From: Blastocatellia bacterium
GTDB taxonomy: Bacteria > Acidobacteriota > Blastocatellia > RBC074
Direction of reading: 5' to 3'
Length of the DNA stretch: 50,196 nucleotides
Assembly (NCBI GenBank): GCA_031423535.1
Contig: JANPFS010000932.1
Span: 1 to 50,196 of the forward strand
The notes beneath the pieces were generated by a model. The model did no database searches. It was not told where the DNA came from and was given only the letters and a program-made list of their open reading frames with translations. This document shows, piece after piece, positions 1,847 to 49,900 of this stretch (position 1 is the stretch's first letter; each line of letters begins with the position of its first letter). A program made the position numbers and the translations under genes.

Positions 1847-1856
1847 AGGGGAGAAG

Positions 1857-7014: not shown

Positions 7015-7029
7015 CAGAAACCTTTCTCA

Positions 7030-7608: not shown

Positions 7609-7946
7609 TCTCCTCTTCGTGCAAACTTTTCACGGCAGTATTTAGGCACTGCTATGACAACCGCATCTGCTTGGTTGGCGGCGGCATTGTGGGGGAACAA
7701 GAGGAGATCACCAAAGGTGACGGGGCATTGCTGGTCGCAGCGGAACTAAACTTTTTTCAGCCCCGCGCAGGCTTACGAAAAAATTGACGCTTATCTTTTC
7801 AGGAAAATCATTCGTAGGGCTAGAGAATGGCTGAAAACCGCGACCGCAACTAATAAGACCAGGCAACTTGGCACGCAGTATCGGCGCACAATAAAAAAAT
7901 CCCGATGATCATTCCAGGCACACGACGGAACTCGCCGAACGGTTGC

Positions 7947-8262
7947 GCCTAAACTTAGCCAAGACTTGGCTAAGTTTATTTCTGGTGTCCTGACGTGGTC
8001 TGCTCAGTAGGCAGAAACAGGCAGCGAAATTGGTATGGGCAATGGTTTCACTCAAGCATTTTCTCCCGCAATAGTGTCTGAGAGCGAGCATGGCAAGATG
8101 AACCTGCCAGATTACCAGACACGCCCAATCTTTCCTGCCTGTTGAAGGCTTAGCGACAAGCCCTTCTCGGAATCAGAGATGCGATAGATGTGGTGGATGA
8201 GTTCTTGTCACCAAACAATTCGCGCCTGGCAGTTAACCCGCGAAGCCTTTTATGCTCGTCAC
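7947..8262. repeat. Copy 1 (full, ~315 nt) of a dispersed conserved intergenic element; candidate structured ncRNA or non-autonomous mobile element
   Basis: Collinear with 9811-10122. Identical blocks are GTTTATTTCTGGTG (7974), GAAACAGGCAG (8014), TTCTCCCGC, GTCTGAGA (8076), CCTGCCTGTTGAAG (8134), GCGACAAGC (8153), GTTCTTGTCACC (8201), CAATTCGCGCCTGGC (8216) and GTTAACCC (8232). Terminal palindrome at 7951-7977. Internal complementarity: AAACAGGCAG with CTGCCTGTT, and GACAAG with CTTGTC. Confidence 0.7.
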
Positions 8263-31439: not shown

Positions 31440-34400
31440 TTAAGGCGCAAGATTGAGTTGCACCGGGTTCGTTGTTTTGCCCGCAATCGTTACGGTGACA
31501 TTGACCAGCCCTTTGCCGCGCAAAGCGGGCGGCAACAAAATGTTGATTTGATCCAAGCCAACAAATTGTCCTTGTGGCCCGGCATACTGAACCGGCAAGG
31601 TTACATCCCCGATTTGGGCGGAGAGGGTCGCGTTCGGATCGCGCTTTCTCAGCCCTGTGGCATATAACACGAGATAGGTTTGTTCACCTTCTTCACCAAT
31701 CTTAATCGGGCGGGCGACGAATAGAGGTTTGCCTTGCTCGTCGGTTCTGACTTCCGCGATGGGTTCGTAAACATCGGGCTGTCCGGCTCGCACCCGTTGA
31801 ATGTTGGCGGCAGCGACTCCTTTGCCCGTAGAATCCGCCGAAAAAACATTCGGCGCAATGTTCTCCACTTGAATCTCGCCAATGGCGTAGAGCGGGGAAT
31901 TGGAAAAGCCATTGTTGGTAGCATAATTGAGAATGTGAATTTGTAGCGTACCGGCGGGCGTGTCTTCCGGGAGATAAAAATTAATTTGCGTGGGCGAGGC
32001 GTATAACAACGATGCGGTGATTAATCCTCGCACCGGAAAATTGATTTGCACGCCAATATCGGCCAGGTACTGCGGAAGAGGCAAGGAGGGGGCAGCTTGG
32101 CTGCGATTGGTCAAGTCCGCATAAAACGCTGTGGCCAGGGAGCCAGGGGCAACCGTTCGTTGGTAATCTGCTGCTGTGGTCACGCTCACTTCATTGCCTC
32201 CCTGCAACACTTCAAATCTTTGTCCGGCAATTGTCACCGCACCTTTGCGAAATCCGCCGGGATTGGCGGTAGTGGTAAGAACGACTTGCGGAGAAGCAGA
32301 GGCGACAGCAAGCCAGCTTGTCTCACTCGTAATACTGACGGGACAATTCGTCCCGGTAGCCACCTGAAATCTGTATTCGCCGCCTTGCGGGCCAGTATGA
32401 ATTTTGTCTGGATAGCCGGTGTTGACTTTGGCATAGGAACAAGGCGCATCTTGAATGAGCGTGAAACTTCGTCCAGCAATCGTCACCGTCGCTTGTCGTT
32501 TAGCGCCTGTATTTTGCGCGAACGCCAGTGTGATCGCCTGATTTCCTTTGCCGGATGCGCCGCTGGGAACCGTGATCCAATTGGCGGTACTCTGCACCGT
32601 CCAATCACAGTCGCTACGATTACAAGTGAGATTTGTTGTAAAACTCGTAGTCGCAGCAGGCAGGAACGTTTCGCCTTGTTTGTCGAGATTGTAAGTGCAA
32701 CCCGCGGGGCCAACGCTGAGCAATTTTAGTTGATAGCTGCCCGGTTTGCCGTGCACACGCAGGGTATATGTGCCAGTGGTCGGGAACTCCGCGTAGCCTG
32801 TTTGCGGGTAGCGCGCGGTACCTTTTCGCTCGTAATCATAAATTGACCAATGCCAGCCTGCATCGCCCGCCAGTTCGGCTGTGATTTCTGTGCTGAGCGC
32901 GGCGCTTAACTCAATCGCAACTTGTTCTCCGGCAACCGCATTGAATTGATAAAAATCCACCTGTTCGCCTGCGATGGCCCAGGCACAGTCATTGGCGCTC
33001 AGCGTGCCGTCAATGGTTTGCCCCATCTGAATAGATTGCCGATTACAGTCACTCCCAATCGGCGCTTGCGTGATGTTTTGGATAACCTGATCTTCCATTT
33101 TCAGGGCATATTTTCGCTCTGTGAATTCGGTATTCGCAGGAACCGTATACGAAATGGTTCTGTCCCCTGTCCCATAGCCAGTATTCTCATAAAAATCATT
33201 GCGGATAATCTGAATGAGAGAAGTGCTGCTCAACGTGCCGTCTGAATACACCCGATACGGAGAAAGGCCCCAGCTACAGGTAAGCCCACCTGTCTGCTTC
33301 ACCATGACCTGCTGTTGGCCGCCAGCGGGCGGCACATTGACCTGACTGGGGGAGAAAATGAGATTGCTGATGCCTGTACATTTGGCGTATTGCTTTACGA
33401 TGAAGGGCTGCTGATGATAGCGCACTACGGTATAGCGTTGTTTCGTATTCGCAATATTGTTGTAATAACCACTGAAGTGAAGTTCATTGAGAATTTGATT
33501 ATGCGTCCCCGAAAGCCAGTTATCTACGTCCCATTCGTCACCTGCGCCGTAAAGTCGAGAACAACTATTCCCGATGGCAGTCACTTTCGCGGGGAAAACC
33601 CCCTTCTCTCGATTCAACGGCAGTCCCCAGGCATCCAGTTCAAACCGTGTGGGAGCGAATTCGTAGCGGCAGCCCGGCGTGAGGGTAAAGTTGAAAAGCC
33701 CCGATTGCGGGAATTCCGTAGGCAATTTGGCATATTCAATAACATAGTTCCCCGTATCGGGAACGATGATCTGCGTAGTGTCTTCGATCCGCAGGATTTT
33801 CCCATTGGGATAGATCAAATTGAAAATCCCGACATAGACTCGACCGTGTGTGTTGATAGTAATAAGCCGTCCTGCCTCTGCATCAAAGGAATAACGCAGT
33901 GCCGGAAGAGATGAATCAAATGCAGAGGTGCAGGTTGACATATTCAGATTGCCTGAAACTTGCTGGTTGAATTCTATCTTTATCGGCGCACAAGGCGGCT
34001 CAGGCGATTTGCCGTCCTGATAAATTATGGCATTGCGCCCGATCTGCGGCATTGAAATAATCGCCAAGCGGGGCTGATCGCTTGTGTTGGGCGCGACTTG
34101 AAATGACACATCACCTAAGCCGGTGCCGCTGGTTGCTGACGTGAGCGACACCCAACTGAAATCAGTCTGTGCTTGCCAGGGGCAGGCATCTCCGCCGATC
34201 TTGGGCACGATAGTAAATGCTCCCTGTCCGCCTTTGTTGCTATAGGAAAATTTCCTTTCTGTCAGTGCATAGCGGCAAATTTCGCCATTCGTCAGATAAT
34301 AGCCAAACGCGCCGAACATGCGCGAAAAACGCGGATACCAATCCACGCCAGCCTGATTTTCGCAACTGGATTCTCCGCCCGACAAGAAGCCAATCAATTG

Positions 34401-35660
34401 GGTCTGGCTACCGGTTCCGATGAACAGTCCTGAGCCGGAAGACCCGGGCTCGGTGATGCCCTGATCCCAGCGGACTTTAAGGTAATAATCACAAAATCCC
34501 GGCGGCACTTCCGCCGGGCAAGCGGCGTCTACAATTTTCCCGAACGCGGCGCGTTTGTAATCGGCTTGCGGATGGTGAATGCCTGTGACAGCGGTGCCGA
34601 CGGGACGTGAAGTTGTGCTCCAACCTGAGTAAACAACGCCACCCGGCGGCTTAGCGCTGAGTTGCAATAACGCATAATCATCCACTTCATCCGTGACGAT
34701 CAACTGCGCGCCGCGCGTGGGCGTCGAAGTGGGTTCTGGCCCCGAATCATAGCGCCAATAGACTTCTGCCGAGCCAGCTTCAGTAGCATTCCCAATGCAA
34801 TGATTCGCCGTCAAAAAATACGGCGTGCCCGTCCGCTTGATGTCTGAAAGTAGCGTTCCACTGCAAGCATACTCGCCGTCCGTTTTCACGAAGGTGATCA
34901 AGGCCGTCGCACGTGCTGCTTCATTGAACTCTGCCGGAACTTCCGCGTTGCAATTGGCGGCTGCTTCCAGCCGACGCTTGTCCTCCGCTTTACTTTGAAG
35001 TGTACGCGGGTGGCGAAAAATATGACTGACGGCATCTATTTGAAACGGGATAACACTGCTTTCCAGCTTGGCATTGGTGGGCACAAAACATTCGAGCAGG
35101 ATTGCTTCGCCCGGCAGTGAGGGCGTCCAAAGCTCCCCCGCAGTCTTGGTATAGGGCGGGGAAAAAAGCTGGGGATTTTGCCGGGAAGAAACAAACAGCC
35201 TGGCTCCTTCAGGCAAATTCAAGGTTTTGATGTGTAATCGCAGCGCAGTGGCTTGTGGGCTGATAATACGCAGCAAATACAACGTTCCCTCCGGCGTGGA
35301 TAATTTCGTCAATTCACTCAGGCCCGCGATGCTTTGTGGCAAGGGGCGCACCAGACCGATGCGGAACTTCTTTTTGTCTGGCGGCGGTTGCTGTTCTGTC
35401 GTACTAATTTCCTTGAGCCGCAGGACGCGCACAGTAGCCCAATCCACCTCCGGCCTGACCAGCAGACTTAATGGCGCTTGTCCTAGCTTCGCCTGAGCTT
35501 CAAGAGAGGCGGGAGTGGGTTTTTCTTTTTCCTCTTCGGCGCGGTAGCTAGACGCAGAAAATTGCCCCTTTACCGCCTGAGAAAAAACGAGCAGAAAAAG
35601 GAAATTGAACGGGAGCAGCGAGCGGAAAATATAGTTTAATGAGGAGATAAATCTTTGCAT
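31440..35660 (-). CDS. 1406-aa secreted multidomain S1 (trypsin-like, lysyl/glutamyl-endopeptidase-like) serine protease with PPC-like, BACON-like and TIGR03437-like C-terminal domains
   Basis: Catalytic triad context LTANHCIG, DDYALLQL and GSSGSGLF. Two pre-peptidase-C-terminal-like segments (D.Y.F.A.AG..V.I). Repeated W...WI/WL....SG.G domains. C-terminal INFYLPEDTPAGT ... LYATGLR ... YAGPQGQFVGLDQINILLP. Confidence 0.85.
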   Translation of the reverse strand: MQRFISSLNYIFRSLLPFNFLFLLVFSQAVKGQFSASSYRAEEEKEKPTPASLEAQAKLGQAPLSLLVRPEVDWATVRVLRLKEISTTEQQPPPDKKKFRIGLVRPLPQSIAGLSELTKLSTPEGTLYLLRIISPQATALRLHIKTLNLPEGARLFVSSRQNPQLFSPPYTKTAGELWTPSLPGEAILLECFVPTNAKLESSVIPFQIDAVSHIFRHPRTLQSKAEDKRRLEAAANCNAEVPAEFNEAARATALITFVKTDGEYACSGTLLSDIKRTGTPYFLTANHCIGNATEAGSAEVYWRYDSGPEPTSTPTRGAQLIVTDEVDDYALLQLSAKPPGGVVYSGWSTTSRPVGTAVTGIHHPQADYKRAAFGKIVDAACPAEVPPGFCDYYLKVRWDQGITEPGSSGSGLFIGTGSQTQLIGFLSGGESSCENQAGVDWYPRFSRMFGAFGYYLTNGEICRYALTERKFSYSNKGGQGAFTIVPKIGGDACPWQAQTDFSWVSLTSATSGTGLGDVSFQVAPNTSDQPRLAIISMPQIGRNAIIYQDGKSPEPPCAPIKIEFNQQVSGNLNMSTCTSAFDSSLPALRYSFDAEAGRLITINTHGRVYVGIFNLIYPNGKILRIEDTTQIIVPDTGNYVIEYAKLPTEFPQSGLFNFTLTPGCRYEFAPTRFELDAWGLPLNREKGVFPAKVTAIGNSCSRLYGAGDEWDVDNWLSGTHNQILNELHFSGYYNNIANTKQRYTVVRYHQQPFIVKQYAKCTGISNLIFSPSQVNVPPAGGQQQVMVKQTGGLTCSWGLSPYRVYSDGTLSSTSLIQIIRNDFYENTGYGTGDRTISYTVPANTEFTERKYALKMEDQVIQNITQAPIGSDCNRQSIQMGQTIDGTLSANDCAWAIAGEQVDFYQFNAVAGEQVAIELSAALSTEITAELAGDAGWHWSIYDYERKGTARYPQTGYAEFPTTGTYTLRVHGKPGSYQLKLLSVGPAGCTYNLDKQGETFLPAATTSFTTNLTCNRSDCDWTVQSTANWITVPSGASGKGNQAITLAFAQNTGAKRQATVTIAGRSFTLIQDAPCSYAKVNTGYPDKIHTGPQGGEYRFQVATGTNCPVSITSETSWLAVASASPQVVLTTTANPGGFRKGAVTIAGQRFEVLQGGNEVSVTTAADYQRTVAPGSLATAFYADLTNRSQAAPSLPLPQYLADIGVQINFPVRGLITASLLYASPTQINFYLPEDTPAGTLQIHILNYATNNGFSNSPLYAIGEIQVENIAPNVFSADSTGKGVAAANIQRVRAGQPDVYEPIAEVRTDEQGKPLFVARPIKIGEEGEQTYLVLYATGLRKRDPNATLSAQIGDVTLPVQYAGPQGQFVGLDQINILLPPALRGKGLVNVTVTIAGKTTNPVQLNLAP

Positions 35661-36088: not shown

Positions 36089-36937
36089 TCATCCGTTTGA
36101 TTCGCGCCGCGCAAAATGGGACGCATTCGTTTGGAATTCCTGATTGACGGCACGCACAGTAAAGGCACTGGGCTGAAAATCTCGTCCTGCCAACTCGCGC
36201 CATTCTCGATAATCCCGATGGCGCCGATTCCTGAGTATGTGCATCATCTCAATGTAGCCCCACGGTCCGCCACAATCTTCGGGTGGGCAAGCCCGCTGCC
36301 CAGCCACACAGCGCTGATAAAACGTGCGCTTCGTTGCCAGCACGATTTTCTCGACCGTAATGCAGTGTCGCCAATCATCGCCGAAATCATATTGATAGGT
36401 GAACGAATCGCCTTCGTGCAAAACATCACCAACAAGGGCTGTCTCGCTTATGTCCTCACCATCATACGGATCGCGCAAATAAAACTTATGTAAATGGAAG
36501 CCTTCCCAGCCCATCGCTATTTGAATCATGGTGCTGAGTTGGAGCAGCGTGTGATCGTCATAAAGCTGTACACGTCGCCAGACGACAGGCCGCACACCTT
36601 CAAGCGTGATCTTGAGTTGAAAGACGAGCGCAGGCGGCGTTGATTTCGTTTTGGGCGTAGTGCGCTTGCGTGTTTTGGGTTGGCTGGGCGGATAAAGTTC
36701 GAGATCGTCGTCGAGGATGGCCTCAATGCTGACGCCACCGGCACGGGCGTAAGCTAGCAGCAGCAACAAGTCGGGTTCGCGCTGCCCAGTCTCGAATTGC
36801 GACACGTAATGCCGTGCCCGCATTCCATCCAGTTGGAGGCGAGTCATGAGTTCACTCTGCGACAATTGCAGGTGTTGGCGGATCGCACGCAGTTTCTCGC
36901 CCAACCGGAAGGGGCGAAGGCGGGCCGCTTTTCCCAT
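36089..36937 (-). CDS. XRE-family HTH fused to a pRiA4b ORF-3-like (PF07929-type) domain, 282 aa
   Basis: The N-terminus LGEKLRAIRQHLQLSQSELMTRL is an HTH_XRE. The C-terminal FQLKITLEGVRPVVWRRVQLYDDHTLLQLSTMIQIAMGWEGFHLHKF ... YQYDFGDDWRH ... CPPEDCGGPWGY is the PRiA4_ORF3 signature. RBS AAAGGAGA. Confidence 0.8.
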   Translation of the reverse strand: MGKAARLRPFRLGEKLRAIRQHLQLSQSELMTRLQLDGMRARHYVSQFETGQREPDLLLLLAYARAGGVSIEAILDDDLELYPPSQPKTRKRTTPKTKSTPPALVFQLKITLEGVRPVVWRRVQLYDDHTLLQLSTMIQIAMGWEGFHLHKFYLRDPYDGEDISETALVGDVLHEGDSFTYQYDFGDDWRHCITVEKIVLATKRTFYQRCVAGQRACPPEDCGGPWGYIEMMHILRNRRHRDYREWRELAGRDFQPSAFTVRAVNQEFQTNASHFARRESNG

Positions 36938-37916: not shown

Positions 37917-38744
37917 TACCACAAGAAATCCCCATTTGATTATCACTGAGCGATTCAAATGGTGCGCTGCACACGCAGCCTTGGTCAATCCGACTACTGA
38001 ATGTGAGTACAGACCTGATCCAACTCGCCATTCAGATCGTTGCTGTAGAAGGGGGGACACCTAGCTGGGCGGCCTAGTGCAAAGTGTTAATTTCCGAAAG
38101 ACTATTCAGATGGCGCAAGTCTCCGCATTAAACCCGTCAAAACCTTACGGCAACCGGCCTTACGCTAAGGAGAGCGGAAAATATTGCTTGCCTCGCCCGA
38201 TCAAGTTGCATAAGCTTACTTGCTTCTTAAATCGGTTTTATCAGTTGGCGCTTTTTTGAATTACTGATGTGGTAATCAAAAGGTACTTCCACGCTAACCC
38301 TTATGATGCAATGCTCGAGTAGAGTTGTTGCGGTGAAAAAAGCCCATAAATCAGTACTGGCAGCTAAAGCGGGCAAGAATGAAAATCGAGCAAAAATCAC
38401 AGATTCCGCCCAAACTCATCAATTTTGCTGCGCGTCACGAGTCTGCTGAAAAAGGCTAAATTGTTGATTCTAAACATCGCAACAAGACTAGCATCTTGCT
38501 GCGGGGCTGAGTGGAACCAGAAGGTGACACTTTTGTCTAAGACTGTCATGACATTTCCCAACCTTATGTATCAAATTCGAGTGATACCATTTTGATGGAT
38601 CAACAGCATAGATGGTAGGCGTGTATGCAGCGTCTTTCGGAGCTACGAGATTGTTTTTCTAAAGGTGCTCGACTCCATTTTTAAGGAGGTCATTTTGCTT
38701 ATCGCCGGGCATTCTTATATCTGGCGAACGGACAATGAAAGCTT

Positions 38745-39161
38745 ATGTCTATTCTTACAGCAAGAACGGAATTGATTCTGAACAATTGGGAGCATCTGCG
38801 CTCCGTAATGGGCGGACAATGGGACAGCTTTTGCCGCGAATTTTTACAGGCGACCACGACATTACAGGCCAATAGTGATCAATCTTCATTGAGCGATGTC
38901 TTATACGCGCTCTCCAAACTTTACAACGAATTCTCGGAGACAAGCGACTTGGCGAGGCAAGCAAAAGCTCAAGATGAAATAATGCTTGTCAAAAGCCCGA
39001 AAGACCCTCTACCAGAAGAGTTGCCGAACTTGCCTTTGATCTGCAATCGCATTCTGGAAAAAAGAGAACAACTGCAAGTTGGAAAAAACGAGCAGGCAAC
39101 TAACACTGAAAGTGGTCAACCTGCGCCTGCACCTTTAGATGTTACTGAGCCTAAAGTATGA
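38745..39161 (+). CDS. Small (138 aa) protein, first gene of the TPR-CHAT cassette (CATASP-like position)
   Basis: The stop overlaps the next start (ATGA at 39158-39161). Helical N-terminal half and a disordered P/E/Q-rich tail. Homology not verifiable here. Confidence 0.55.
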   Translation: MSILTARTELILNNWEHLRSVMGGQWDSFCREFLQATTTLQANSDQSSLSDVLYALSKLYNEFSETSDLARQAKAQDEIMLVKSPKDPLPEELPNLPLICNRILEKREQLQVGKNEQATNTESGQPAPAPLDVTEPKV

Positions 39162-40363
39162 CCACACTATTTGATCTAACGGTGACGCGCTTTGATTTGT
39201 TTTTGCGTTCAGAAGGACGCGAGCCAAAAGCGAGCGAAGAACGCTGTTGGCAGTCATTCTATCCCACGTTGCAAAGGGCCGCCGTGTGGGGGAAATGCGA
39301 TCCGCCTGCTAACTCGCTGCCCCAAGGCGCACAAATTTTTCAACATGATTTTGATGCCTCCAATCGTCGCATTACAGCGGAATCCTGGTTGGACGTGTAT
39401 TGTTTGGAAACGGCTGTTTTGCAAACGGGCGCAAGTCCCTTGATACAAATTCCCAAGCTGGACTGTGCTCCAGAGCAGAAGCTGGATTTTGCTCCAGACC
39501 AGAACTCGCACTACCTTGGTTCCGCGCTTTGTTATTGGGCGGAATATGATGCGCCGTTGAGTCTTGATGAAGCCCGAAAATTGATTACCCCCAGCGCCAA
39601 CCAAAGAACTGTCGCTCTGGATTTTGGCTTTTTGGCGTTTTCCCTGGAGACTGCACAAACACAAAAATTTGTGATGTTCGTTGAACGCAACCAAGACGCA
39701 GGTATGCGCGATGCCAACATTTTTTTGCGATATTGTTTGCCTCGTTTGCTGGCGACCAGATACAAGGGGCAGCGTGTATTTGGGGAATATCAGACCTCTG
39801 CGCCGGAACAACAAAAACACGAAGCCGCATTAGTCGCACAAGCAAATCAAATTGCCGAACAATCAAAAACGCTTGGCGATTTAGAAAAGGACGCTTATCA
39901 AATATCCGGCGCGTTATTGCCGTTGGCGAAAATAATTGGCGCAGGTGAAGAGTACAAAAACACGCTCAGCATCAATGCGCGCAATGCCGAAACGATAGTT
40001 CGACTTCCGCTGTTTGATCGCGCGCGCGCTGAATTGCAAGCGGATTGGGTGGAACCACTTCAGCTTCAGGCCGATCAAATCGGGACGGACTTAACGTACT
40101 TGCAACACACTGTCAAATATATCCAAGAACAACTGACGCTGTACGATAAACAGGCCATCATTATTTCTTCGCAATGGCAACGCCGCCTGACGATTTTGTT
40201 TGGGTTGTTCGTGTTGTTGAGTGTGCCGCAATTATTCCCGGAAATCACCAACTCACAATGGTCTCCCTATTTCGCGTGGCGTTGGCGGTTGCTTTACCTC
40301 GTAATCAGCGGAGTGCTGATGTGGGGCGTCATCTGGTGGCTGGGGAAAAACAAGCAACCATAG
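39158..40363 (+). CDS. 401-aa protein with two C-terminal TM helices, second gene of the TPR-CHAT cassette (CATRA-like position)
   Basis: Translationally coupled to the upstream ORF. Long helical middle region. Hydrophobic helices LTILFGLFVLLSVPQLF and LLYLVISGVLMWGVIWWLG at the C-terminus. Confidence 0.65.
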   Translation: MTTLFDLTVTRFDLFLRSEGREPKASEERCWQSFYPTLQRAAVWGKCDPPANSLPQGAQIFQHDFDASNRRITAESWLDVYCLETAVLQTGASPLIQIPKLDCAPEQKLDFAPDQNSHYLGSALCYWAEYDAPLSLDEARKLITPSANQRTVALDFGFLAFSLETAQTQKFVMFVERNQDAGMRDANIFLRYCLPRLLATRYKGQRVFGEYQTSAPEQQKHEAALVAQANQIAEQSKTLGDLEKDAYQISGALLPLAKIIGAGEEYKNTLSINARNAETIVRLPLFDRARAELQADWVEPLQLQADQIGTDLTYLQHTVKYIQEQLTLYDKQAIIISSQWQRRLTILFGLFVLLSVPQLFPEITNSQWSPYFAWRWRLLYLVISGVLMWGVIWWLGKNKQP

Positions 40364-40448
40364 AATTCAAGCTAGGTCTTTTCTGAGCAGAACCTGTGGT
40401 AGCAGGTGTCAAAATAAAGACCAGCGCTCGCGCACTGAGTGAAGTGAA

Positions 40449-43400
40449 GTGCCAGCGCAACGCAATTCTGGGCTATCTTCTGTTCGCCTGCATTTACGGA
40501 CTGCAAATAACTATATGGCTTCTTTTCATCAATCTATTTTTCTTCGTGTTCGTACCTTCGTAAAAAACACTCTGCATGCATACGTGATAAAGCGAATAAA
40601 CCAGAGTATGCAAAGTGAAAACGCGATGTACTCACCCGCTCAAGTCAACAGATTGCTCAACGCTTCTCCAGCGCAAGAAATCCATAATCTCATTCAAGAG
40701 GGGTTTTCTGACTCGTTGCCTTTGTCAAAATGGGCAGAACTGACACGACAATACTTGGTATTACAAAAACAGGAATACTTAATTGCAGCAATTCAAGCGG
40801 CATCAGGAGAACATCCAACGGGTCTATGGTCAGACCTAAAACGGCGGTCGGCCTCAAAATCGCCCGGTATTGTCAACGTACTCAGATCTCTACTATTTGG
40901 AAGCTTACCGGGGGCAATGGAAACAGCGCCACAACTCATCAAAACGCTGATACAAGCAGGGCGTAAGCAGGATGCCGCAACTTTGATATTGGCCGGGGAT
41001 TTTCACAAAGTCGCGCTGACCGAAAGGTTCAAGAAATTTCCGCTGGAGCGACAAATGGAAATGGCACAATTGGGAATTCAGGCAGCACAACAATCCGCAC
41101 AACTTGCCGCTGCGCTGGGTTATGTGAGTTACACTGCGCATTGTCATCTATGTATGGGGAATGCGTTACAGGAGCAGCATCGCTTTGAGGAAGCAACGCA
41201 CAGCTATGAAGAAGCGTTACAAATTCGACAGCAGTTGGCGCAGCAGCAACCGGATAATTATCTGCCGGATGTGGCGATGACGCTGAACAATTTGGGACTT
41301 GTGTTACGCGAACAGCGGCGGTTTGAGGAAGCAACACGCAGTCTTGAAGAAGCGTTGCAGAGCTATCGGCAATTAGCGCAGCAGCAACCGGATATTTATC
41401 TGCCGGATGTGGCGATGACGTTGGGCAATTTGGGGCTTGTGTTACGGTCGCAGTGGCGGTGGGAGGAAGCAACACGCAGTCTTGAAGAAGCGTTGCAGAT
41501 TCGACGGCAATTAGCGCAGCAGCAACCGGATATTTATATGCCGGGTGTGGCCGCGACGCTGGTTAATTTGGGGACTTCGTTAGGCGAACTGCGGCGGTGG
41601 GAGGAAGCGACACGCAGTCTTGAAGAGGCGTTGCAGATTCGACGGCAATTAGCGCAGCAGCAACCGGATAATTATCTGCCGGATGTAGCGACAACATTGG
41701 GCAATTTGGGGAATTCGTTATTGGTGCAGCAAGGGTTAAAGAAAGTGACGCACAGCTATGAAGAAGCATTGCAGATACAACGGAAATGGGCGCAGCAGCG
41801 GTCTGATATTTATCTGCCGGATGTGGCGATGACGCTGGTTAATTTGGGGAATTCGTTACGCGAACAGCGGCGGTGGGAGGAGGCAACACGCAGTCTTGAA
41901 GAAGCGTTACAGAGCTATCGGCAATTGGCACAGCAGCAACCGGATAATTATCTGCCGGGTGTGGCCGCGACGCTGTACAATTTGGGACTTGTGTTAGTCG
42001 AACAGCGGCGGTTGGGGGAAGCAACACGCAGCTATGAAGAGGCTTTGGAAATAGGGAAACGATTTCCTGCTGGAGAACTCCACTTAAAGCTTTTAAGTTC
42101 ACTCGGAGCGCGGCATTTCGAAGCGAGTAGGATAGAACCGGCGATAGGATATTTAGCGCAGGCTCATGAGTTGATAGAAACATTCAGCTCTGCCGCCGTG
42201 ACACCTGTAAGGCGGCGGCAAATTCGAGATCAGCATTATGAGGCGACGAACCTGTTAGCTCTGTGCCAAACACAACAGTGTGAATACACGCAGGCATTGA
42301 CGATTATCGAGGCTGGCAAAGGGCGCGTGTTGAATGAAATGATGGCAGAAGGATTGTCTTTCGCCGACACCGTGCCAGTAGCGTTACGGGAGCGGTTCTG
42401 GCAGGCACGGCAACATGTATTTGAGTTTCCCGCTTTGCCTGAACGACAGGACGAAGATAACGATCAATGGGGCAAAGTGGTTAATGATTATCGAGTTCGT
42501 CGTTCGGCGGCTGACACGGCATTATTGCAGGTAAGAGACGAACTCCGGCCCTTGGACTCTACATTCAAGGCACTGAGTGAGCCGTTAGATGCGGCGGAAA
42601 TGCAGAACCTTGCCAAACAAACCCATACAATTCTGGCGCAATTCAGCGTTACCAAATATGGCAGCCTGATTTATGTCATCTTCCCTGATGGCTCGCTCGA
42701 AGCCATTCAATTGCCCGATTTCACTTTAGGAAAACTCGAGGCGTTGCTGATTACAATTGAAAATGAAAAAGAGGTTGGCGGATGGTTAGTTGATTATGAT
42801 TCAGCCTTACGATCAAAACAGCTACAAAACTGGTTTCTTACGATGACGATCACGTTGGAGGAAGCACAGGCTGGGTTAATGCAACCATTGCACGACCTGT
42901 TGCAAAAACGCCATATTGCCACCGGATCACATCTCGTATTTGTGCCGACACGCGGTTTGTCATTGTTGCCGTTACATGCTTGTTGGTGGGAAGAAGCAGG
43001 GCGGCGGAAATATTGGTTGGATGAATACGTAATTAGCTACGCGCCCAGCCTGAGTATCCTACAACGTTGTCAGGCGCGGAGAGCCGAACGCCAAAGCGAT
43101 GACCGATTATTTGGCGCAGCGAATCCGAGGCGAGATTTGTTGTATACCGAACTGGAGTGCGCGGAAATCGAACAATTATTTGGTCACGAGAATGCCTTGC
43201 TCTGGCATGAAGCTGCCACAAAAGAGGCCGTGTTGCAGGGAATAAAACAGGCGTCCACTTTGCATTTTTCGTGCCATGGCAATTTTCAGTTAAATGATCC
43301 TCTGGCTTCGGCGCTGCAAATGTCGGATGGCGAATTAACAATGCGCGACATAATGCAACAAGGGCGATTGAGCCATAACGATCTGACGGTATTATCCGCC

Positions 43401-43799
43401 TGTGAGACCGCGCAAAGCGATTACCGTGAACTTGCCGACAACCATTTTACACTCGCCAGCGCGTTTCTGTGTATTGGCGCTCCTACGGTGTGGGCGACAT
43501 TGTGGGCGGTCAATGATTTGTCCAGTTCACTTTTGCTGATTGAGGCGATGCAACGAATGCGCCAAAACAACCTAAGCAAAGCTGAAGCCTTGCGCGGGGC
43601 GCAATTATGGTTACGCGATGCAACGAACTCAGAGTTATCAAAAATAGTCGAAGAGAAGCTCAACGCGCTTGGATTGAGCGCAGATAAGAATTTGAGAAGA
43701 GCGTTGCAAGAATTAAGCGGTCGCCTTAATCCCAAATCAGACGAGCGCCCATTTTTACATCCCTATTATTGGGCCGGTTTTCAATCGGTCGGAGCGTAA
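40449..43799 (+). CDS. TPR-repeat CHAT-domain (caspase-fold) protease, up to 1116 aa
   Basis: About 6.5 copies of a 46-aa TPR-like repeat (EEATRSLEEALQIRRQLAQQQPDIYLPDVAMTLGNLG). The C-terminal CHAT domain carries His in LHFSCHGNF, Cys in LTVLSACETAQ, and a terminal HPYYWAGFQSVGA. The start codon is uncertain (GTG 40449, ATG 40515, 40608 or 40626). Confidence 0.9.
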   Translation: MPAQRNSGLSSVRLHLRTANNYMASFHQSIFLRVRTFVKNTLHAYVIKRINQSMQSENAMYSPAQVNRLLNASPAQEIHNLIQEGFSDSLPLSKWAELTRQYLVLQKQEYLIAAIQAASGEHPTGLWSDLKRRSASKSPGIVNVLRSLLFGSLPGAMETAPQLIKTLIQAGRKQDAATLILAGDFHKVALTERFKKFPLERQMEMAQLGIQAAQQSAQLAAALGYVSYTAHCHLCMGNALQEQHRFEEATHSYEEALQIRQQLAQQQPDNYLPDVAMTLNNLGLVLREQRRFEEATRSLEEALQSYRQLAQQQPDIYLPDVAMTLGNLGLVLRSQWRWEEATRSLEEALQIRRQLAQQQPDIYMPGVAATLVNLGTSLGELRRWEEATRSLEEALQIRRQLAQQQPDNYLPDVATTLGNLGNSLLVQQGLKKVTHSYEEALQIQRKWAQQRSDIYLPDVAMTLVNLGNSLREQRRWEEATRSLEEALQSYRQLAQQQPDNYLPGVAATLYNLGLVLVEQRRLGEATRSYEEALEIGKRFPAGELHLKLLSSLGARHFEASRIEPAIGYLAQAHELIETFSSAAVTPVRRRQIRDQHYEATNLLALCQTQQCEYTQALTIIEAGKGRVLNEMMAEGLSFADTVPVALRERFWQARQHVFEFPALPERQDEDNDQWGKVVNDYRVRRSAADTALLQVRDELRPLDSTFKALSEPLDAAEMQNLAKQTHTILAQFSVTKYGSLIYVIFPDGSLEAIQLPDFTLGKLEALLITIENEKEVGGWLVDYDSALRSKQLQNWFLTMTITLEEAQAGLMQPLHDLLQKRHIATGSHLVFVPTRGLSLLPLHACWWEEAGRRKYWLDEYVISYAPSLSILQRCQARRAERQSDDRLFGAANPRRDLLYTELECAEIEQLFGHENALLWHEAATKEAVLQGIKQASTLHFSCHGNFQLNDPLASALQMSDGELTMRDIMQQGRLSHNDLTVLSACETAQSDYRELADNHFTLASAFLCIGAPTVWATLWAVNDLSSSLLLIEAMQRMRQNNLSKAEALRGAQLWLRDATNSELSKIVEEKLNALGLSADKNLRRALQELSGRLNPKSDERPFLHPYYWAGFQSVGA
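41176..42060 (+). repeat. Intragenic tandem repeat, 138-nt period, ~6.4 units (TPR units of the CHAT protein)
   Basis: The TTTGAGG/GTGGGAGG phase marker recurs at 41184, 41322, 41460, 41598, 41736, 41874 and 42012. Units are highly similar at the nucleotide level. Confidence 0.9.
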
Positions 43800-43916: not shown

Positions 43917-46892
43917 TTATCTTAGGCTTATCCGCACTGGGTTCGACGCCTTGCCCTCTACGCTAATTTCGACATTAACCGCACCACGACCAGCCAGGCT
44001 CTTCGGCACACGCACATTGATTTGATCCAATCCAACATACTGGCCTTGCTTGTCAGCATACTCGACTACTGCATCCACGCCGCCGATCTTGACGATGACG
44101 TTGTTGAGATTACTGCGATAACGAAGCCCCGTTCCATACAACACTAACACTACAGTATCCGTACTCACATCAATCGGCACTGGTACAATTTGATTTTGCG
44201 CTGCATCAAAGCGAGCTACGCGCTCAATCACTTGTGCGCCATTGTTTTTGACATAGACGACGTCTCCAGCCGCCCAGCCCTGCCCCGAAGAATCGGCGGA
44301 AAATATACCTGGCGCGATTTTGCTTACATTGAGCAAGCCTGGCGTGGCTTCGCCAGAACTGTTCACGATTGTGACGGTCGCAATGCCTTCTGCGGTCTCC
44401 GCTGGAATTTGGTAGTTGACCTGATTCGGCGAAACGAAAAACAGCGCGGCCAACCGTTCGACGCCCTGACTGTCTTTGACCTTGACTGTGGTGCCGCCGA
44501 GTGTCGTAGGCAACGGATTGCTTGCCGCGCCAACTGTTAACGTCGACAGCCGGGTTCCAAAGGCTGAGGATATCGAATCTGCCGCCAATTCTGTATTTAC
44601 ATAGTTTGCCGCCGATACAGAGGCTGCTGCCCTGCCGCTAACTGTAATCGCACTGTTGGTGTAGCTAACCGATTCAATGGGGGTAGCAAACGCATCTACA
44701 ACTTCACGCGCCAGCAATTGATCGGTAAAGGTGATATTGGTGACTACATCGCCCTCGTTCCCTCCAGGGATAAATCGAACCGTTAATAGTGTGCGCGTTC
44801 CCGCCGCCAATTGCTGTCCCCCAGGCAATGCGAGGGCAATGCCGATCTTGCCGGTGGTTGCTTGTGAACGATTCACTTGCAAGGCAGCGCCAGTAGCACC
44901 GTTGCCAACATTGGCATCCACAAAGCTCATTTGTTTGGGATCGAAGTTAAGGCTAAACGCGGTCGCATTTTCGTTGCCCTGTGCATCCAGTTCAATTTGT
45001 AATGTCCCGATTTGACCACGCATGAATTGGGAATTGACCGCACGGAGAATTCTTCCCGCTTCTGGTTGGACGTTAGCACCTATACCCGTTAGTGCCAAAG
45101 GTGAAACGGGGGCGCTTGGCCCTCCTGCTGGCAGAACCGGATCAAGCCCTGCCGCAAATCGCCCCGCTTGTACCCAATCCGCGAGAGTGATTTTCCCATC
45201 TCCCAAGGTGGCCTTCGGCGCGCAATCTGCACGCTGAAATTCACTGCCGACGTTTAGGGAATCAAGCAGTGCAACAAATCGCCCCATCTGTGTCCAATCT
45301 GCGATTGTTACCGTGCCATTGTTGTTCCCATTGGGGCGAGGCGAGACATCCGCTTCGTAGCCTGTGGCCAGCGGATTGATAGTAAAAGTCTGCGCGGTAG
45401 TTGTGCCGCCACTTGGCGGGGCATTGTAAACAGTAACGAAGGCTGTCCCCGCGTTCGCCAAATCGGTGCCAGGAATCGCGGCTTGCAGTTGTGTCGAGGA
45501 AATAAATGTCGTGGGCCTATCCGCTCCGTTCCATCGGACAACGGAGCTTCTGAGAAAATTCGCTCCGTTCAATGTTAGTGTAAAAGCAGCATCGCCCTGC
45601 GTTTTTACCGTGGGGGAGATTGAAACCAGCGAAGGTACGAGTCCTGTCACTGTAAAGGTTAGTTCGTTGGATGTTCCTCCTGGCGGAGTGGGATTGACGA
45701 CCTTAATCTTGGCAACTCCCTCGGTGGAAAGATCAGAGGTGAGAATGTTTGCGGTCAGTTGTGTACTGCTAACAAAGGTTGTGGTTCGATTTTGTCCATT
45801 CCATTGCACTGTCGCGCCATTCACAAAGCCAGTGCCATTGACAGTCAGCGCGATCCCTGTGCTACCAGCATTAATTGTATTCGGGCTAAGCGAAGTGAGG
45901 GTTGGCGCTACCACATCTCCGTTCAGGGTCAAGGTGGATTCGGCGTAAGTCGCATTCAGTGAATTGGCATAAACATCAGCAACACCACTGACTGTTGGTT
46001 GATCACCGAAAAATAAGCGGGTAGTAGTCGTGACCCCGGACGAGATTTGAAACCGTACAAGAGCGATTGTCGCTGTACCAGCAGCAAAAGCCTTGCCGGG
46101 GCTGAGCGCCAGAACAATGCCGACTTTACCATTTGTCACCTGACTGGTGTTCACAAGCAGTTGTGCATCGGCAAGGCCGGTGCTGGCACTGACGAACATG
46201 AACAAGGTAGGATCAAAGTTGAGACTGAAGGCGATGGCATTCTCATCGCCCTGTGCATCGAATTCGAGATTGAGTGGATTGCTTTGACCGCGTTGTAAAG
46301 ATGGACTTGTAATTCGGACGGTGCGAGAGCCAGTGGCCTGCAAAATATTTCGCGTGTTAAAAAATGAAGAGGGCGACGGCATGAGCGCAGAGAGCAACCC
46401 GGATGTCACTGGTGCAGCAGCCGGGACGAGATCATCCAAACCCGCAAAAAATCGCCCTGCCTGTACCCAATCAAAAACGTCTATCTTTCCATTGCCGAAG
46501 GTAGTCAAGGGCGCACTGTCGGCGCGCTGTAATTCGCTTGTGTTGGTTATGGCATCAATCCCTGCGGCAAACCGTCCTACCTGATCCCAGTCCTGGCGTG
46601 CGATGATTCCCGTTTTCTTTCCCGCCGGGCGCGGCGTTACATCGGCCTTGAACTCTACGTTTTTGACCGTAACGGAAGTGCGATTTCCTGCCGCATCATA
46701 ACCGTAGGTAATGATTGCGCCGTTGGAATAAGTAGCTGTTTCAAGGCGATTAAGCTTATCGTAGGTATAAACAACGGTAGGATTTTGCCCGCAAGCATTA
46801 TCTCGCTGCCCTCCACAAATAATGAGAGCAGAAACTACGACGGTATAGAGTAATATTTTCATTTTGCTCTTTTGCCCCATGATGTAACACAA
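43917..46892 (-). CDS. 991-aa secreted/lipoprotein adhesin-like protein: N-terminal YD repeats, two (dockerin-like + cohesin-like) modules, two IPT/TIG domains, TIGR03437-like C-terminus
   Basis: N-terminus LYTVVVSALIICGG, then YTYDKLNRLETATYSNGAIITYGYDAAGNRTSV. Duplicated GDGKI.L.DWVQAGRF.AGLD plus F.L.FD...... modules. SLSPNTINAGSTGIALTVNGTGF and ISPTVKTQGDAAFTLTLNGANF are IPT-like. C-terminal VNYQIPAETAEGIATVTIVN ... LYGTGLRY ... YADKQGQYVGLDQINVRVP. Confidence 0.85.
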   Translation of the reverse strand: MCYIMGQKSKMKILLYTVVVSALIICGGQRDNACGQNPTVVYTYDKLNRLETATYSNGAIITYGYDAAGNRTSVTVKNVEFKADVTPRPAGKKTGIIARQDWDQVGRFAAGIDAITNTSELQRADSAPLTTFGNGKIDVFDWVQAGRFFAGLDDLVPAAAPVTSGLLSALMPSPSSFFNTRNILQATGSRTVRITSPSLQRGQSNPLNLEFDAQGDENAIAFSLNFDPTLFMFVSASTGLADAQLLVNTSQVTNGKVGIVLALSPGKAFAAGTATIALVRFQISSGVTTTTRLFFGDQPTVSGVADVYANSLNATYAESTLTLNGDVVAPTLTSLSPNTINAGSTGIALTVNGTGFVNGATVQWNGQNRTTTFVSSTQLTANILTSDLSTEGVAKIKVVNPTPPGGTSNELTFTVTGLVPSLVSISPTVKTQGDAAFTLTLNGANFLRSSVVRWNGADRPTTFISSTQLQAAIPGTDLANAGTAFVTVYNAPPSGGTTTAQTFTINPLATGYEADVSPRPNGNNNGTVTIADWTQMGRFVALLDSLNVGSEFQRADCAPKATLGDGKITLADWVQAGRFAAGLDPVLPAGGPSAPVSPLALTGIGANVQPEAGRILRAVNSQFMRGQIGTLQIELDAQGNENATAFSLNFDPKQMSFVDANVGNGATGAALQVNRSQATTGKIGIALALPGGQQLAAGTRTLLTVRFIPGGNEGDVVTNITFTDQLLAREVVDAFATPIESVSYTNSAITVSGRAAASVSAANYVNTELAADSISSAFGTRLSTLTVGAASNPLPTTLGGTTVKVKDSQGVERLAALFFVSPNQVNYQIPAETAEGIATVTIVNSSGEATPGLLNVSKIAPGIFSADSSGQGWAAGDVVYVKNNGAQVIERVARFDAAQNQIVPVPIDVSTDTVVLVLYGTGLRYRSNLNNVIVKIGGVDAVVEYADKQGQYVGLDQINVRVPKSLAGRGAVNVEISVEGKASNPVRISLR

Positions 46893-46951: not shown

Positions 46952-49900
46952 TTACTTCCACCTTCCACCCCCGCCTCCAAAACTACCTCCACCTGAGAAA
47001 CCGCCAGAGAAGCCACTCAAAGGCGATGTTCTTTTTTTACTGGAATTATCTATACCTTCTGTCATGAGATATTTAAGTGTGTTAGAAAAAGGTAATCCAC
47101 TTAAATCTATTAAGGCACCAGAGCCGGCCTTGCTCGCTTCAGATATAGTAAGCTCTCCGCGAATTATCTTAGGAACCAAAGGGGCGTAGTCGGTCAATGC
47201 GTCCTTAATGGCACCAACTCCTTTAGTAAAAATTCCGGTCCATGGTGCCAACAGACTCACTGCATCTTTTGTAAAAGCAATCTCTCCCTTACTGTAACCT
47301 GCCGCGAGGCAAGCACTGTCGTATTCATAAAGAGATATGTTGCAGACGAAGTGGTTTGAGCTATCTACAAAAGACTGTCCGGTTGGGGTATCAACAAAGT
47401 TTGTGGCACGATATAAGGCACCATCATATTTAAGAGGATCGCTTAAAAAATCCGCTGTCGCATTGTATGCGCCAGAAACTGCATTAGCAGTCACATCGTA
47501 TGCCTTGGAAACGCCATTGACCGTTGCGTTATATGCGCCAGAGATCATGCTTGAGAAAGAGAGGCCAAGCGGGTCAATATTACCTGTGGGGTTGTTACCG
47601 ACATACGCAAAGAGGTTCAGGCTTTGCGTGTTCGATGGCGCGCCAGGAACTAAGTCTTTATTGAGGAACCGTCCCATTTCAGGTAAATAATAACGTGCCC
47701 GCATGAATTGCAGTCCATTGTTTTCCTGCATAACCCCATGTTGCCCAATATACTGGAATGGTTGTGGGACGCTCTCATTAGAGCTAACCACTCTACCAAA
47801 TAAATCGTAAGAGTAACGATTCGCCATTATTTGTGCATCATCAGTCATGGCTACAGTGGAACCAAGCGGATCAAAGTGGTAGTAATAATGCTTCCCATCT
47901 ACCCCGACTTTGCTTGTTAACCCAAGACCAGGAATATAGTACCCTATAATTCCTCCATTGCTATCCGTCTCGCAGGGTAGCTGTGAAAGTTGCCGATTGG
48001 TATCTACGACATATCGCGTCATCTTCGCCCCCTCCTGCTTACCAAGTCGCACGCCAGCACCGTTATAAAAATATTGCGTAGTCCCTCCCACTGCGCTCAG
48101 GCGATCATCGAAATCGTACGTAAACGCCGTTGTCACGGCCCCCGTAATCTTTTTCGTCAGATTCCCATTGGCATCAAACGTGAATGTTGATGCACCAGCT
48201 TGTTTGATTTGGTTTGCGGCATCATAAGCCGCCACTTGCGGTGGAGTGGTGACCTGTAAGGGAAGCGGCTCTTGAATGCTTGCGCTCAGCCGATTCCCAT
48301 TTTTGTCCAACATATAAGCGTATGAACTAATAATTGTTCCGTCAGACTTCGCATTCATCAGCTTCGTCAAACGCCCCGCATTATCATAAGTATAGGTTGC
48401 GGTGGTTCCATTTCCGTTTGTCACTTTAGTTACCAGGCTTCGCTGATCATATTCATAGTTGGTTTTCTTGCCCAGCCAATCCGTCACAGATACCATTCGA
48501 TTACCTTTGTCGTATTCGTAATTTACCTGCTTACTATCCGGGTAGGTCAAAACCTTAACATTGTCATTCTCATCGTATTGATAGCCAATCGTTTTGCCGT
48601 AGGCGTCGGTGTAACTGGTTACTCGATTCAGGTCGTCATACAGGTATTTCGTTGTCCCGATTGCATCCACCATCTCTAACACGTTCCCGTTTTCGTCATA
48701 TTTGAAGGTAACAGTCTTTGTATCCGGGTATGTAATGGTGATAGGCCGATTGTTATTGTCGTAGTCGTATTTGGTGGTTTGCTGTTTCGCGTCGGTGCGC
48801 GTTTTGCGATTGCCGACTTCATCGTAGGTGTAGATATATTTGTTCGTCAACGGGTCTTCCATCGTCTCAACCCGGTTGAGTTTGTCGTAGGTCGTTTTGG
48901 AGACACGCTGGTTCGGGTCTTCGACAGAAATACGATTACGGTTTTTGTCGTAACTATATTTGGCTGTCTTCAAGGCTGCATCTGTGACCACCGTTAGGTT
49001 GCCAACGACATCGTACTCAAACTTGGTAGAGTTACCACGTTGGTCGATTTCTTCACTCAGCCGATTCGTAGCGTCATAATTGCGCTGTACCGTATTGCCT
49101 AATGAATCTTTGATCTGCCTCAGATGATTAAGCGCGTCATAGGTAAATTCCGTAGCCTGTCCGCTGGGGTCAATAGTTTTTGTTCGATTCCCATTCGCGT
49201 CATATTCGTACCGCGTGGTATTTCCGTTTGGGTCTTTAACGGAAATCAGCCGATCTTCATTATCGTACTCAAACTGAGCCAGGTTCCCGCGCTTATCCTT
49301 GGTTGAGATGCGGCGGTCAAGCTTATCGTAGGTATGCTCAACGGTTTTGCCGAAGGCGTCAGTGACTCTCACCAACAGATTGTTTTCATTGTAATCATAC
49401 TTTGTCAGTTTCCCTCGCGCATCTCGCATGCTGATGCGATTGTTATTGGCATCGTAGGTGTAGGTGGTAACCTTGCCGGAAGGGTCTGTAACGTTCAGCA
49501 CATTATCATTATTGTCATAGGTGTAGCTGGTTGTTTTCCCTCGCGCGTTTGTCATGCTGATGCGCCGCCCAATCGGATCGTAAGTATAAGAGGTCGTATT
49601 CCCCAGCGCATCTTTGATGCTTTGCAGATTCCCCTTGCTATCATAAGTTCTGGTGGTGGAATTCTTATTCGCATCAACCGTTACTAATGGCTGACCGTAG
49701 GAGTCGTAAGTCGTAGTAACCGTATTGCTGAGCGGATCTGTAATACCCGTCAAATTCCCCTTGCCATCGTAGGTTAATTGCGTTTTGGCATTTCGTTCAT
49801 CTGTGATTAAGGTAGGGTTGTTTTGGCCATCATAGCTGACCTGCCGGATTTTTTGCAGCGGGTCTGTATAGGCGGTGACATTACCACTCGGATCATACAC

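Follow-up and report, generated by a model that had tools for sequence, protein, structure and literature searches.

A TPR-CHAT protease cassette from a Blastocatellia bacterium encodes a membrane partner with a predicted CorA-like fold

Here, we describe a three-gene cassette on a 50,196-nucleotide (nt) stretch of DNA from a Blastocatellia bacterium (GenBank assembly GCA_031423535.1, contig JANPFS010000932.1, positions 1 to 50,196), referred to below as the window. Its open reading frames (ORFs) encode a small helical protein (ORF1), a membrane protein with a predicted CorA-like fold (ORF2), and a caspase-like protease composed of TPR repeats and a CHAT domain (ORF3). We propose, with a probability of roughly one-half, that these three components make up a conflict module that spreads horizontally and serves abortive infection or programmed death, the protease gating the CorA-fold effector. 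The observations behind this proposal are the gene structure, the domain identities, an aligned catalytic dyad, the conservation of the ORF1-ORF2 pair, its linkage to CHAT genes, one natural gene fusion, and the predicted fold. Caspase-dependent ternary conflict systems have already been described computationally; the novelty, as judged from the structural model, is the CorA-fold partner. A first-pass annotation of the window, made from the sequence alone, had suggested a protease-activated membrane effector module. The predicted fold, which that annotation did not contain, strengthens the pairing of a protease with a membrane effector; the functional inference drawn there is supported in part.

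Layout of the cassette

The three genes are codirectional and lie as follows (coordinates are those of the window):

38745-39161, + strand: ORF1, 138 amino acids (aa), small helical partner protein
39158-40363, + strand: ORF2, 401 aa, predicted CorA-fold membrane protein with two transmembrane (TM) helices
40449-43799, + strand: ORF3, 1116 aa, GTG start, TPR-CHAT caspase-like protease

Direct reading of the sequence shows that the end of ORF1 and the start of ORF2 share the tetranucleotide ATGA at 39158-39161, an overlap by which ORF2 is translationally coupled to ORF1, and 85 nt separate ORF2 from ORF3. Gene order, overlap, and gap had all been read in the same way at first pass. The start of ORF3, and with it the length of the gap, is nevertheless uncertain because one gene caller places the start at ATG 40515 rather than at GTG 40449 and because alignments of ORF3 to its homologs start only near residue 90.

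ORF2 belongs to an unannotated family with a predicted CorA-like fold

An exhaustive phmmer (HMMER) search of 1.84 billion cluster representatives retrieved 80 relatives of ORF2 at an E value of ≤1e-3 and 37 at ≤1e-10. The best relative is 38% identical, nearly all are 400 to 470 aa long, and the only name that family members bear in RefSeq and GenBank is "hypothetical protein." Apart from noise, neither ORF1 nor ORF2 had a match in Pfam, NCBIfam, or PADLOC at E ≤ 0.1. A word-indexed search of 5.8 billion proteins found, for each of the two, only the query itself, and a tblastn search of 72,556 plasmids with ORF2 and the family consensus gave no match. As the ORF1/ORF2 family is invisible to the Pfam, NCBIfam, and PADLOC models, it has been missed by defense-system surveys. 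In the alignment of the ORF2 family, D79 and E243 are invariant, and D6, L78, K203, T269, N276, Q307, Y314, and R342 are nearly so.

We modeled ORF2 with AlphaFold2 as a single chain from a 65-sequence alignment. The model has a mean predicted local distance difference test score (pLDDT) of 90.9 and a predicted template modeling score of 0.84, and it shows the layout of the CorA/MIT fold, namely, an N-terminal alpha/beta domain, stalk helices, and two C-terminal TM helices:

39158-39685, + strand: N-terminal alpha/beta cytosolic domain of ORF2 (residues 1-176; D79 invariant; D6, C125, and E129 highly conserved)
39695-40183, + strand: three long helices forming the stalk (H180-234, H239-281, and H290-359)
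40184-40345, + strand: membrane hairpin (TM1, 343-357; TM2, about 370-397)

The long helical middle and the two C-terminal hydrophobic helices noticed at first pass thus correspond to model helices within 180-359, to TM1 at 343-357, and to TM2 at 374-396. Conserved residues of the stalk are K203, E243, T269, N276, Q307, Y314, and the motif W340-x-R342, and the third long helix (290-359) continues into TM1. The hairpin runs in the order W-x-R, TM1, Q-x-F-P-E (358-362), a variable loop, W374..R377, and TM2, with the conserved Q-x-F-P-E occupying the position of the GMN loop of CorA.

When the model was compared with the PDB using Foldseek, the best 50 matches were all CorA, MRS2, or CmaX channels, with E values down to 8.5e-5, probabilities of ∼1.0, and 320 to 420 aligned columns for full-length chains. 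CorA chains that comprise the cytosolic domain alone also matched (5n77 [E = 7e-4], 8zah, and 8slb), which indicates that the similarity is not driven by the TM hairpin alone. In a library of viral structures, the top named match was a phage "Mg2+ transporter."

The sole low-confidence loop of the N-terminal domain (residues 100-118; pLDDT, 63 to 76) holds an 8-aa duplication (KLDCAPEQ/KLDFAPDQ; residues 100-116), encoded by a 24-nt tandem duplication of 2.1 copies at 39455-39504. Judging from the model, this exposed and recently duplicated loop could be acted on by a protease or bound by a ligand.

ORF1 is a small helical protein with a disordered linker

The model of ORF1 is of moderate confidence (pLDDT, 72.8). 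In it, four helices form an N-terminal bundle (residues 3-77), which a disordered linker (78-95) joins to a further helix (96-121) and a disordered tail; a search with the model returned no fold match (best E value, 0.77). ORF1 matches its closest counterpart with an E value of 2e-6. Across the small-protein family, W26 and F29 (ORF1 numbering) are invariant and R102 is present in at least 90% of members, and a family-alignment column within the linker is Arg in at least 90% of homologs. We also considered a homotypic adaptor shared by ORF1 and the N terminus of ORF3 and rejected it, as hhalign found no similarity between the two (probability, 0.2%).

ORF3 is a TPR-CHAT protease with an aligned His/Cys dyad

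Pfam CHAT (PF12770) matches ORF3 residues 807-1115 with 167.4 bits against a cutoff of 24 (E = 6e-49). N-terminal to this domain, Pfam finds TPR repeats (TPR_10, 152 bits, E = 1e-45; TPR_12, 135 bits, E = 7e-40). The architecture of the protein is as follows:

40716-41120, + strand: N-terminal region of ORF3 (residues 90-224), candidate docking domain
41155-42047, + strand: TPR tandem array of 6.5 units of 138 nt (46 aa); the TPR region as a whole covers residues 229-560
42201-42878, + strand: middle helical region (residues 585-810), between the TPR array and CHAT, kept in partner proteases
42867-43793, + strand: CHAT domain (residues 807-1115)

The putative catalytic residues are His943 (codon at 43275-43277) and Cys985 (codon at 43401-43403). 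Their contexts, FSCHGNF and LSACETA, pair with ILCHGEA and LGACETD of the solved Craspase TPR-CHAT protein 8d9f (E = 5e-12); by this alignment, the dyad appears intact and correctly placed relative to a solved CHAT active site. Both contexts, and the ∼6.5 TPR-like units of 46 aa, had been picked out at first pass, and the Pfam match, the structure-based alignment, and Tandem Repeats Finder (period, 138 nt; 6.5 copies; 78% matches) bear these assignments out. Among the PADLOC-DB v2 models, ORF3 matched only BovA and TPR models, both weakly.

The six core 46-aa units (41155-42128) differ by 202 nonsynonymous and 105 synonymous codon differences, and amino acid variation among them is concentrated at unit positions 3-11 and 45. 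By analogy, this pattern resembles the conserved repeats with hypervariable positions that are found in sensor proteins.

The ORF1-ORF2 pair recurs beside TPR-containing partners

We took a census of the gene neighborhood by a local hidden Markov model (HMM) scan of contigs with ORF3 or ORF2 homologs, two loci from Blastocatellia metagenome-assembled genomes (MAGs), and nine metagenome loci. The resulting set comprises 24 nonredundant loci, 17 of which have enough flanking sequence to judge CHAT linkage. Wherever upstream sequence exists, the ORF2-like gene is immediately preceded by, and usually overlaps, a gene for a small protein of 116 to 145 aa. An HMM of the small protein confirmed its presence in nine of nine loci outside the set from which the HMM was built (E values from 1e-16 to 6e-33).

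In loci L002 and L003 (JGI 3300059601), the small and ORF2-like proteins are fused into one 541-aa ORF (4201-5826 in L002) that lacks ∼25 residues of the middle of the small protein; the closely related contig L004 has instead two overlapping genes of 132 and 411 aa. This natural fusion argues for a physical interaction between ORF1 and ORF2.

In a further locus (L011, 5083-5514), the small-protein gene has an in-frame stop after codon 63, beyond which the conserved C-terminal part can still be read without a frame change. L012, a related contig from a second sequencing run, shows this 63-aa gene call as well. The stop could mark a pseudogene, be bypassed by read-through or recoding, or stem from an assembly artifact shared by the two contigs.

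Homologs of ORF1 and ORF2 co-occur with CHAT genes in other genomes, as the first-pass reading would have it. Of the 17 informative loci, 13 have the pair next to a CHAT protease gene or to a truncated N-terminal/TPR part of such a gene (the window, L002, L004, L005, L006, L007, L008, L009, L011, L021, L022, L023, and L026); the CHAT gene is divergent in L007 and split into two ORFs in L022. Residues 90-224 of ORF3 match the CHAT partners in L002, L004, L005, L006, L007, L009, and L011 (E values from 1e-4 to 3e-13), and a counterpart of this region is absent from the CHAT partner in L008. The conservation of residues 90-224 is specific to the CHAT partners of ORF2-family loci. Because the partner proteases have both this region and residues 585-810 in common with ORF3, beyond the TPR and CHAT parts, they form a dedicated subfamily.

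The pair also occurs in other company. In L024 (3206-6688), it is followed by a 1161-aa TPR protein without CHAT that matches Avs2 weakly at residues 385-506 (E = 1.7e-3); on this similarity, the protein may be a STAND-NTPase sensor that takes the place of the protease. The most distant branches of the family are L014 and L015/L016. In the former (996-7120), the pair is flanked by TPR-CsgG-like, outer membrane protein-like, and beta-propeller proteins, with no CHAT gene visible. In the latter (4222-8239, a Bacteroidota MAG), a Ser/Thr kinase-TPR gene lies upstream, and a GNAT-like protein also flanks the pair in L015; no CHAT gene is visible, and the contig stops just downstream of the pair. 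One ORF2-like gene (L027, 3689-5568) is cut at ∼216 aa by a Mutator-family (IS256-like) transposase (E = 7e-111 to 6xg8), which fits a costly effector undergoing inactivation.

Such a recurrent arrangement in many unrelated contigs is more than chance. The invariant core is the ORF1-ORF2 pair, and the third component is a TPR-containing partner, usually with CHAT. A pair that stands beside varied TPR proteins behaves as expected of a portable effector cassette.

Downstream of the TPR-CHAT gene, L002 (9522-12843) and L004 (10152-14101) each carry genes for a YbjN-like 206-aa protein and a ClpB-like AAA+ protein of 896 or 897 aa. The two contigs stem from one metagenome, and these genes may reflect either synteny between related organisms or an accessory module.

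A proposed mechanism

In the mechanism that we propose, ORF2 would be the effector, a CorA-like oligomeric channel that conducts ions and in which the Mg2+-selective GMN filter has been lost, with Q-x-F-P-E in its place. ORF1, made at fixed stoichiometry through translational coupling, would attach to the cytosolic domain of ORF2 and act there as a latch or adaptor. ORF3 would act as both sensor and actuator, its TPR array and N-terminal docking region recognizing a trigger or holding the ORF1-ORF2 complex. Once activated, the CHAT dyad would cut a flexible segment, for which the best candidates are the ORF1 linker (78-95) and the ORF2 loop (100-118). Cleavage would release the latch and open the channel, and the ensuing ion leak would depolarize the membrane, leading to arrest or death.

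The census points to a broader version of this mechanism, which we put forward tentatively and consider somewhat improbable as a whole. The ORF1-ORF2 pair would be a previously unrecognized portable death-effector cassette, a GMN-less CorA channel latched by ORF1, which is opened mostly by TPR-CHAT proteolysis and is wired elsewhere to STAND-TPR or kinase-TPR sensors. The occurrence of one two-gene cassette with differing TPR sensors suggests a modular effector.

Protease-triggered effectors (gasdermins, Craspase, and trypsin- or caspase-linked modules) are an emerging theme in bacterial immunity. To our knowledge, caspase-TPR "ternary" systems are uncharacterized, and their partner proteins have no assigned function. 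The predicted CorA-like fold turns one hypothetical protein into a concrete hypothesis, that of a proteolytically gated ion channel, under which the membrane should depolarize, His943 and Cys985 should be required, and the disordered linker should contain a cleavage site. If the proposal is true, the cassette would be a "caspase-CorA" counterpart of caspase-gasdermin systems and a second immune recruitment of the CorA channel fold, distinct from the CRISPR CorA that is gated by S-adenosylmethionine-AMP (SAM-AMP). If, in addition, CATRA systems (see below) are homologous, it would supply the missing mechanism for that whole class.

Evidence against the proposal and alternative explanations

A number of results weigh against a protease-gated CorA-fold effector. 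TM-scores between ORF2 and CorA are low (0.2 to 0.47), with root mean square deviations of 11 to 18 Å. The family profile finds no CorA among the PDB sequences, and hhalign against a mini-profile of E. coli CorA and ZntB gave a probability of 2.6%, touching TM1 only. Pfam CorA is matched neither by ORF2 nor by the ORF2-family consensus, and the GMN signature is absent from the outer end of TM1 in the family. In terms of its model, then, ORF2 is a CorA-fold protein and not a member of the CorA family, the predicted similarity being at the level of the fold only. Furthermore, no PADLOC defense model (DB v2) matches ORF1 or ORF2, ORF1 itself has Met at the nearly invariant Arg column of its linker, and 4 of the 17 informative loci have no adjacent CHAT gene. 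Within the window, no phage or integrase hallmarks lie beside the cassette, the neighbors being RHS-repeat, trypsin-like, and PRiA4_ORF3 genes. The direction of signaling could also run otherwise, with ORF2 as the sensor rather than the effector.

One alternative concerns classification and is compatible with the channel-gating mechanism: the cassette may be a divergent CATRA system, with ORF2 as CATRA, ORF1 as the CATRA-associated small protein (CATASP), and ORF3 as the caspase-TPR protein, in which case only the fold assignment would be new. We put this somewhat short of even odds. According to two sources (PMC8195603; bioRxiv 10.1101/2025.11.14.688446), CATRA is a caspase-dependent "ternary" system with an associated small protein, a logic that parallels the three-gene cassette. 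CATRA-C (PF20270) is, moreover, the sole Pfam family to which two or more ORF2 relatives have a match (4 of 44 and 5 of 65; best E value, 0.0014). These weak matches fall in the region of the stalk helices; that of relative P0132 (17.7 bits) spans profile positions 35-137 of 137 and residues 238-339, ending exactly where TM1 starts. All of them, however, are below the 24.6-bit cutoff, and when 30 members were scanned singly, only one weak match to CATRA-C was located. ORF2 itself has no CATRA-C match in Pfam at E ≤ 0.1, nor do at least 60 of the 65 members match that model, and CATRA-N is matched by neither ORF2, the family consensus, nor any of the 65 relatives. The majority consensus of the family reaches neither CATRA-N, CATRA-C, nor CorA in Pfam. 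CATASP was matched by none of eight small proteins (with thresholds of E ≤ 1 for ORF1 and four homologs and of E ≤ 0.01 for three others), no CATRA-type model in NCBIfam was matched, and the family is labeled only as hypothetical in RefSeq and GenBank. The CATRA/CATASP assignment made at first pass was therefore not borne out by hmmscan for either ORF1 or ORF2. That annotation had also ascribed the naming to Kaur et al. 2020, in which the word CATRA is absent from the main text and one supplement; PMC8195603 credits CATRA jointly to Kaur 2020 and Burroughs and Aravind 2020. By the existing sequence models, the cassette is outside CATRA and would be at most a remote relative that they do not capture.

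Alternatively, ORF2 might be a sensor or anchor that responds to ion or envelope perturbation (e.g., phage entry or lysis) and activates the TPR-CHAT protease, which would then cut ORF1 or other cellular targets, as Craspase cuts Csx30. The cytosolic domain of canonical CorA is a divalent-cation sensor, and ORF2 has invariant acidic residues in its N-terminal domain (D79) and stalk (E243); the disordered linker of ORF1 would suit cleavage, and the dedicated N-terminal region of the proteases could dock to the pair. Yet the pair also stands beside TPR partners that are not proteases (one weakly STAND-like, the other joined to a kinase), which fit a shared effector better than a protease-dedicated sensor, ORF1 has no recognizable output domain or fold match, and the repeat diversification typical of sensors is seen in the TPR array, not in ORF2. 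A sensor role is the leading mechanistic rival of our proposal, though we regard it as unlikely. Far less probable still is that ORF2 and ORF1 are a housekeeping divalent-cation transporter and its accessory, beside an unrelated or merely regulatory TPR-CHAT gene and with no conflict system involved. Canonical CorA, Mrs2, and ZntB are indeed housekeeping ion transporters, and ORF2 has a CorA-like fold, but it lacks the GMN motif and does not resemble CorA in sequence. Its family is also rare and patchy, with 80 representatives among 1.84 billion, occurs in mobile contexts and in several phyla, is linked to CHAT in most loci, and has one copy disrupted by a transposase. That the adjacency is due to chance, or that ORF1 or ORF2 is not a real gene, might be suspected from the lack of an annotated family and from the word-indexed search, which found only the queries; the homolog families with conserved residues and gene order and the high-confidence model of ORF2 effectively refute it.

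Comparison with known systems

With CATRA, as briefly mentioned in two sources, the window and 12 further loci have in common a protease of the caspase superfamily with TPR repeats that is accompanied by one mid-sized and one small protein, and some ORF2 relatives fall weakly, recurrently, and in the correct place on CATRA-C. The difference lies in ORF1 and ORF2, which fail the CATRA-N, CATRA-C, and CATASP models and whose family members bear only hypothetical labels. In the accessible literature, from which the primary CATRA description is excepted, we found no description of a CorA-like fold or a two-TM hairpin for CATRA.

In Craspase, which comprises Cas7-11/gRAMP, the TPR-CHAT protein Csx29, and Csx30/Csx31/RpoE, the protease is inactive until triggered and then cuts a partner encoded by an adjacent gene. 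The cassette resembles this type III-E system in having a TPR-CHAT protease with an aligned His/Cys dyad. Unlike Csx29, ORF3 scores only 86.4 bits against the NCBIfam model NF041237, for which the cutoff is 300. The window contains neither a gRAMP gene nor a CRISPR-like array (the other large ORFs scanned, of 991, 1056, and 1406 aa, are RHS-repeat and trypsin-like proteins), and the partners are unrelated to Csx30/Csx31, one of them being a membrane protein.

The proposed logic is also that of bacterial gasdermin systems, in which a caspase-like protease frees a membrane-permeabilizing effector encoded by an adjacent gene. Gasdermins, however, are soluble pore formers released by the removal of an inhibitory peptide, whereas ORF2 is predicted to be an integral two-TM protein with a CorA-like fold and has no gasdermin match in Pfam or PADLOC. 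The predicted architecture of ORF2 is that of CorA, Mrs2, and ZntB (CmaX): an alpha/beta domain at the N terminus is followed by long stalk helices, two TM helices, and, at the C terminus, a basic tail. ORF2 departs from these channels in having Q-x-F-P-E for GMN, no sequence-profile similarity, a conflict-type neighborhood, and a sporadic distribution.

A membrane protein with the fold of the CorA superfamily as an immune effector, as proposed here, has a parallel in the CorA effector of type III-B CRISPR, which is activated by SAM-AMP, has been modeled as a pentamer, and is presumed to compromise the integrity of the membrane (Chi et al. 2023, PMC10600005). Its gating depends on a second messenger, a nucleotide that Cas10 produces, and its similarity to CorA can be detected in the sequence of the C-terminal 172 residues (PMC10600005). 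In contrast, the cassette has no CRISPR or Cas10 context, has a protease and a small protein as partners, and resembles CorA at the level of the fold only. Our text searches returned no paper that links CorA to CHAT proteases or caspase-like defense systems.

In a survey of protease-associated effectors (bioRxiv 10.1101/2025.11.14.688446), the logic of a protease with a latent effector is described as widespread in defense contexts. The cassette is similar to the Pepco/Trypco, EACC1, MBL, and alpha/beta-hydrolase modules characterized there in that a protease is linked to a latent death effector. It differs in its effector family, ORF2 not being among the families of those four site-specific-proteolysis modules. 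CATASP also appears in the survey, outside the four modules.

Signs of mobility among relatives

The closest relatives of ORF2 are found in Blastocatellia MAGs, and a protein with at least 90% identity to one encoded in the window belongs to an Acidobacteriota MAG; both point to a probable Acidobacteriota origin of the window. In the closest relatives of the cassette (L005; L009, JAXLQP010000001.1; and L010, JBFWUF010000031.1), the immediate neighbors are genes for a tyrosine integrase and a TraC-like conjugation protein. At 90% identity, proteins from Blastocatellales MAGs cluster together with the RefSeq proteins WP_281722700.1 and WP_281722701.1 of Nitrosomonas nitrosa, whose accessions are consecutive for the small and large proteins. 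This suggests either an integrative conjugative element that moves between phyla or a binning error. The GC content of the cassette (0.486) is mildly lower than that of the left flank (0.537) and equal to that of the right flank, so base composition gives no sign that the cassette was acquired recently in the window.

Upstream region and neighboring genes

The flanks of the cassette hold the following features:

31440-35660, − strand: trypsin-like peptidase with BACON domains, 1406 aa, upstream of the cassette
36089-36937, − strand: PRiA4_ORF3-family protein, 282 aa, upstream of the cassette
38061-38744, + strand: upstream leader, 684 nt, without a convincing ORF
43917-46892 and 46952-50122, − strand: two large RHS-repeat genes, convergent, directly downstream of the cassette

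The ∼690 nt that had been described as lacking a convincing ORF thus amount to 684 nt, in which no ORF exceeds 60 aa. Within this leader, no sigma-70-like promoter rose above background, and the promoter and terminator scan gave nothing beyond a shuffled background; Rfam and tRNA scans found no match in the leader or elsewhere in the window. Inverted repeats flanking the cassette are short and chance-like. The leader does contain a strong Shine-Dalgarno-like sequence (AAGGAGG, 38683-38689), followed 5 nt on by a TTG that opens an upstream ORF of 26 codons (38695-38775), out of frame with ORF1 and overlapping its ATG; the start of ORF1 itself has no obvious Shine-Dalgarno sequence. This arrangement could be a leader peptide or a translational-coupling device, or it could be due to chance.

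Farther upstream, the segment 36937-38060 is richer in GC (0.57), and its ORFs are all doubtful. On the other side, the RHS-repeat genes are polymorphic-toxin-like conflict genes beside the cassette, and one of the two RHS-repeat proteins also has cohesin-like and repeated Ig-like segments.

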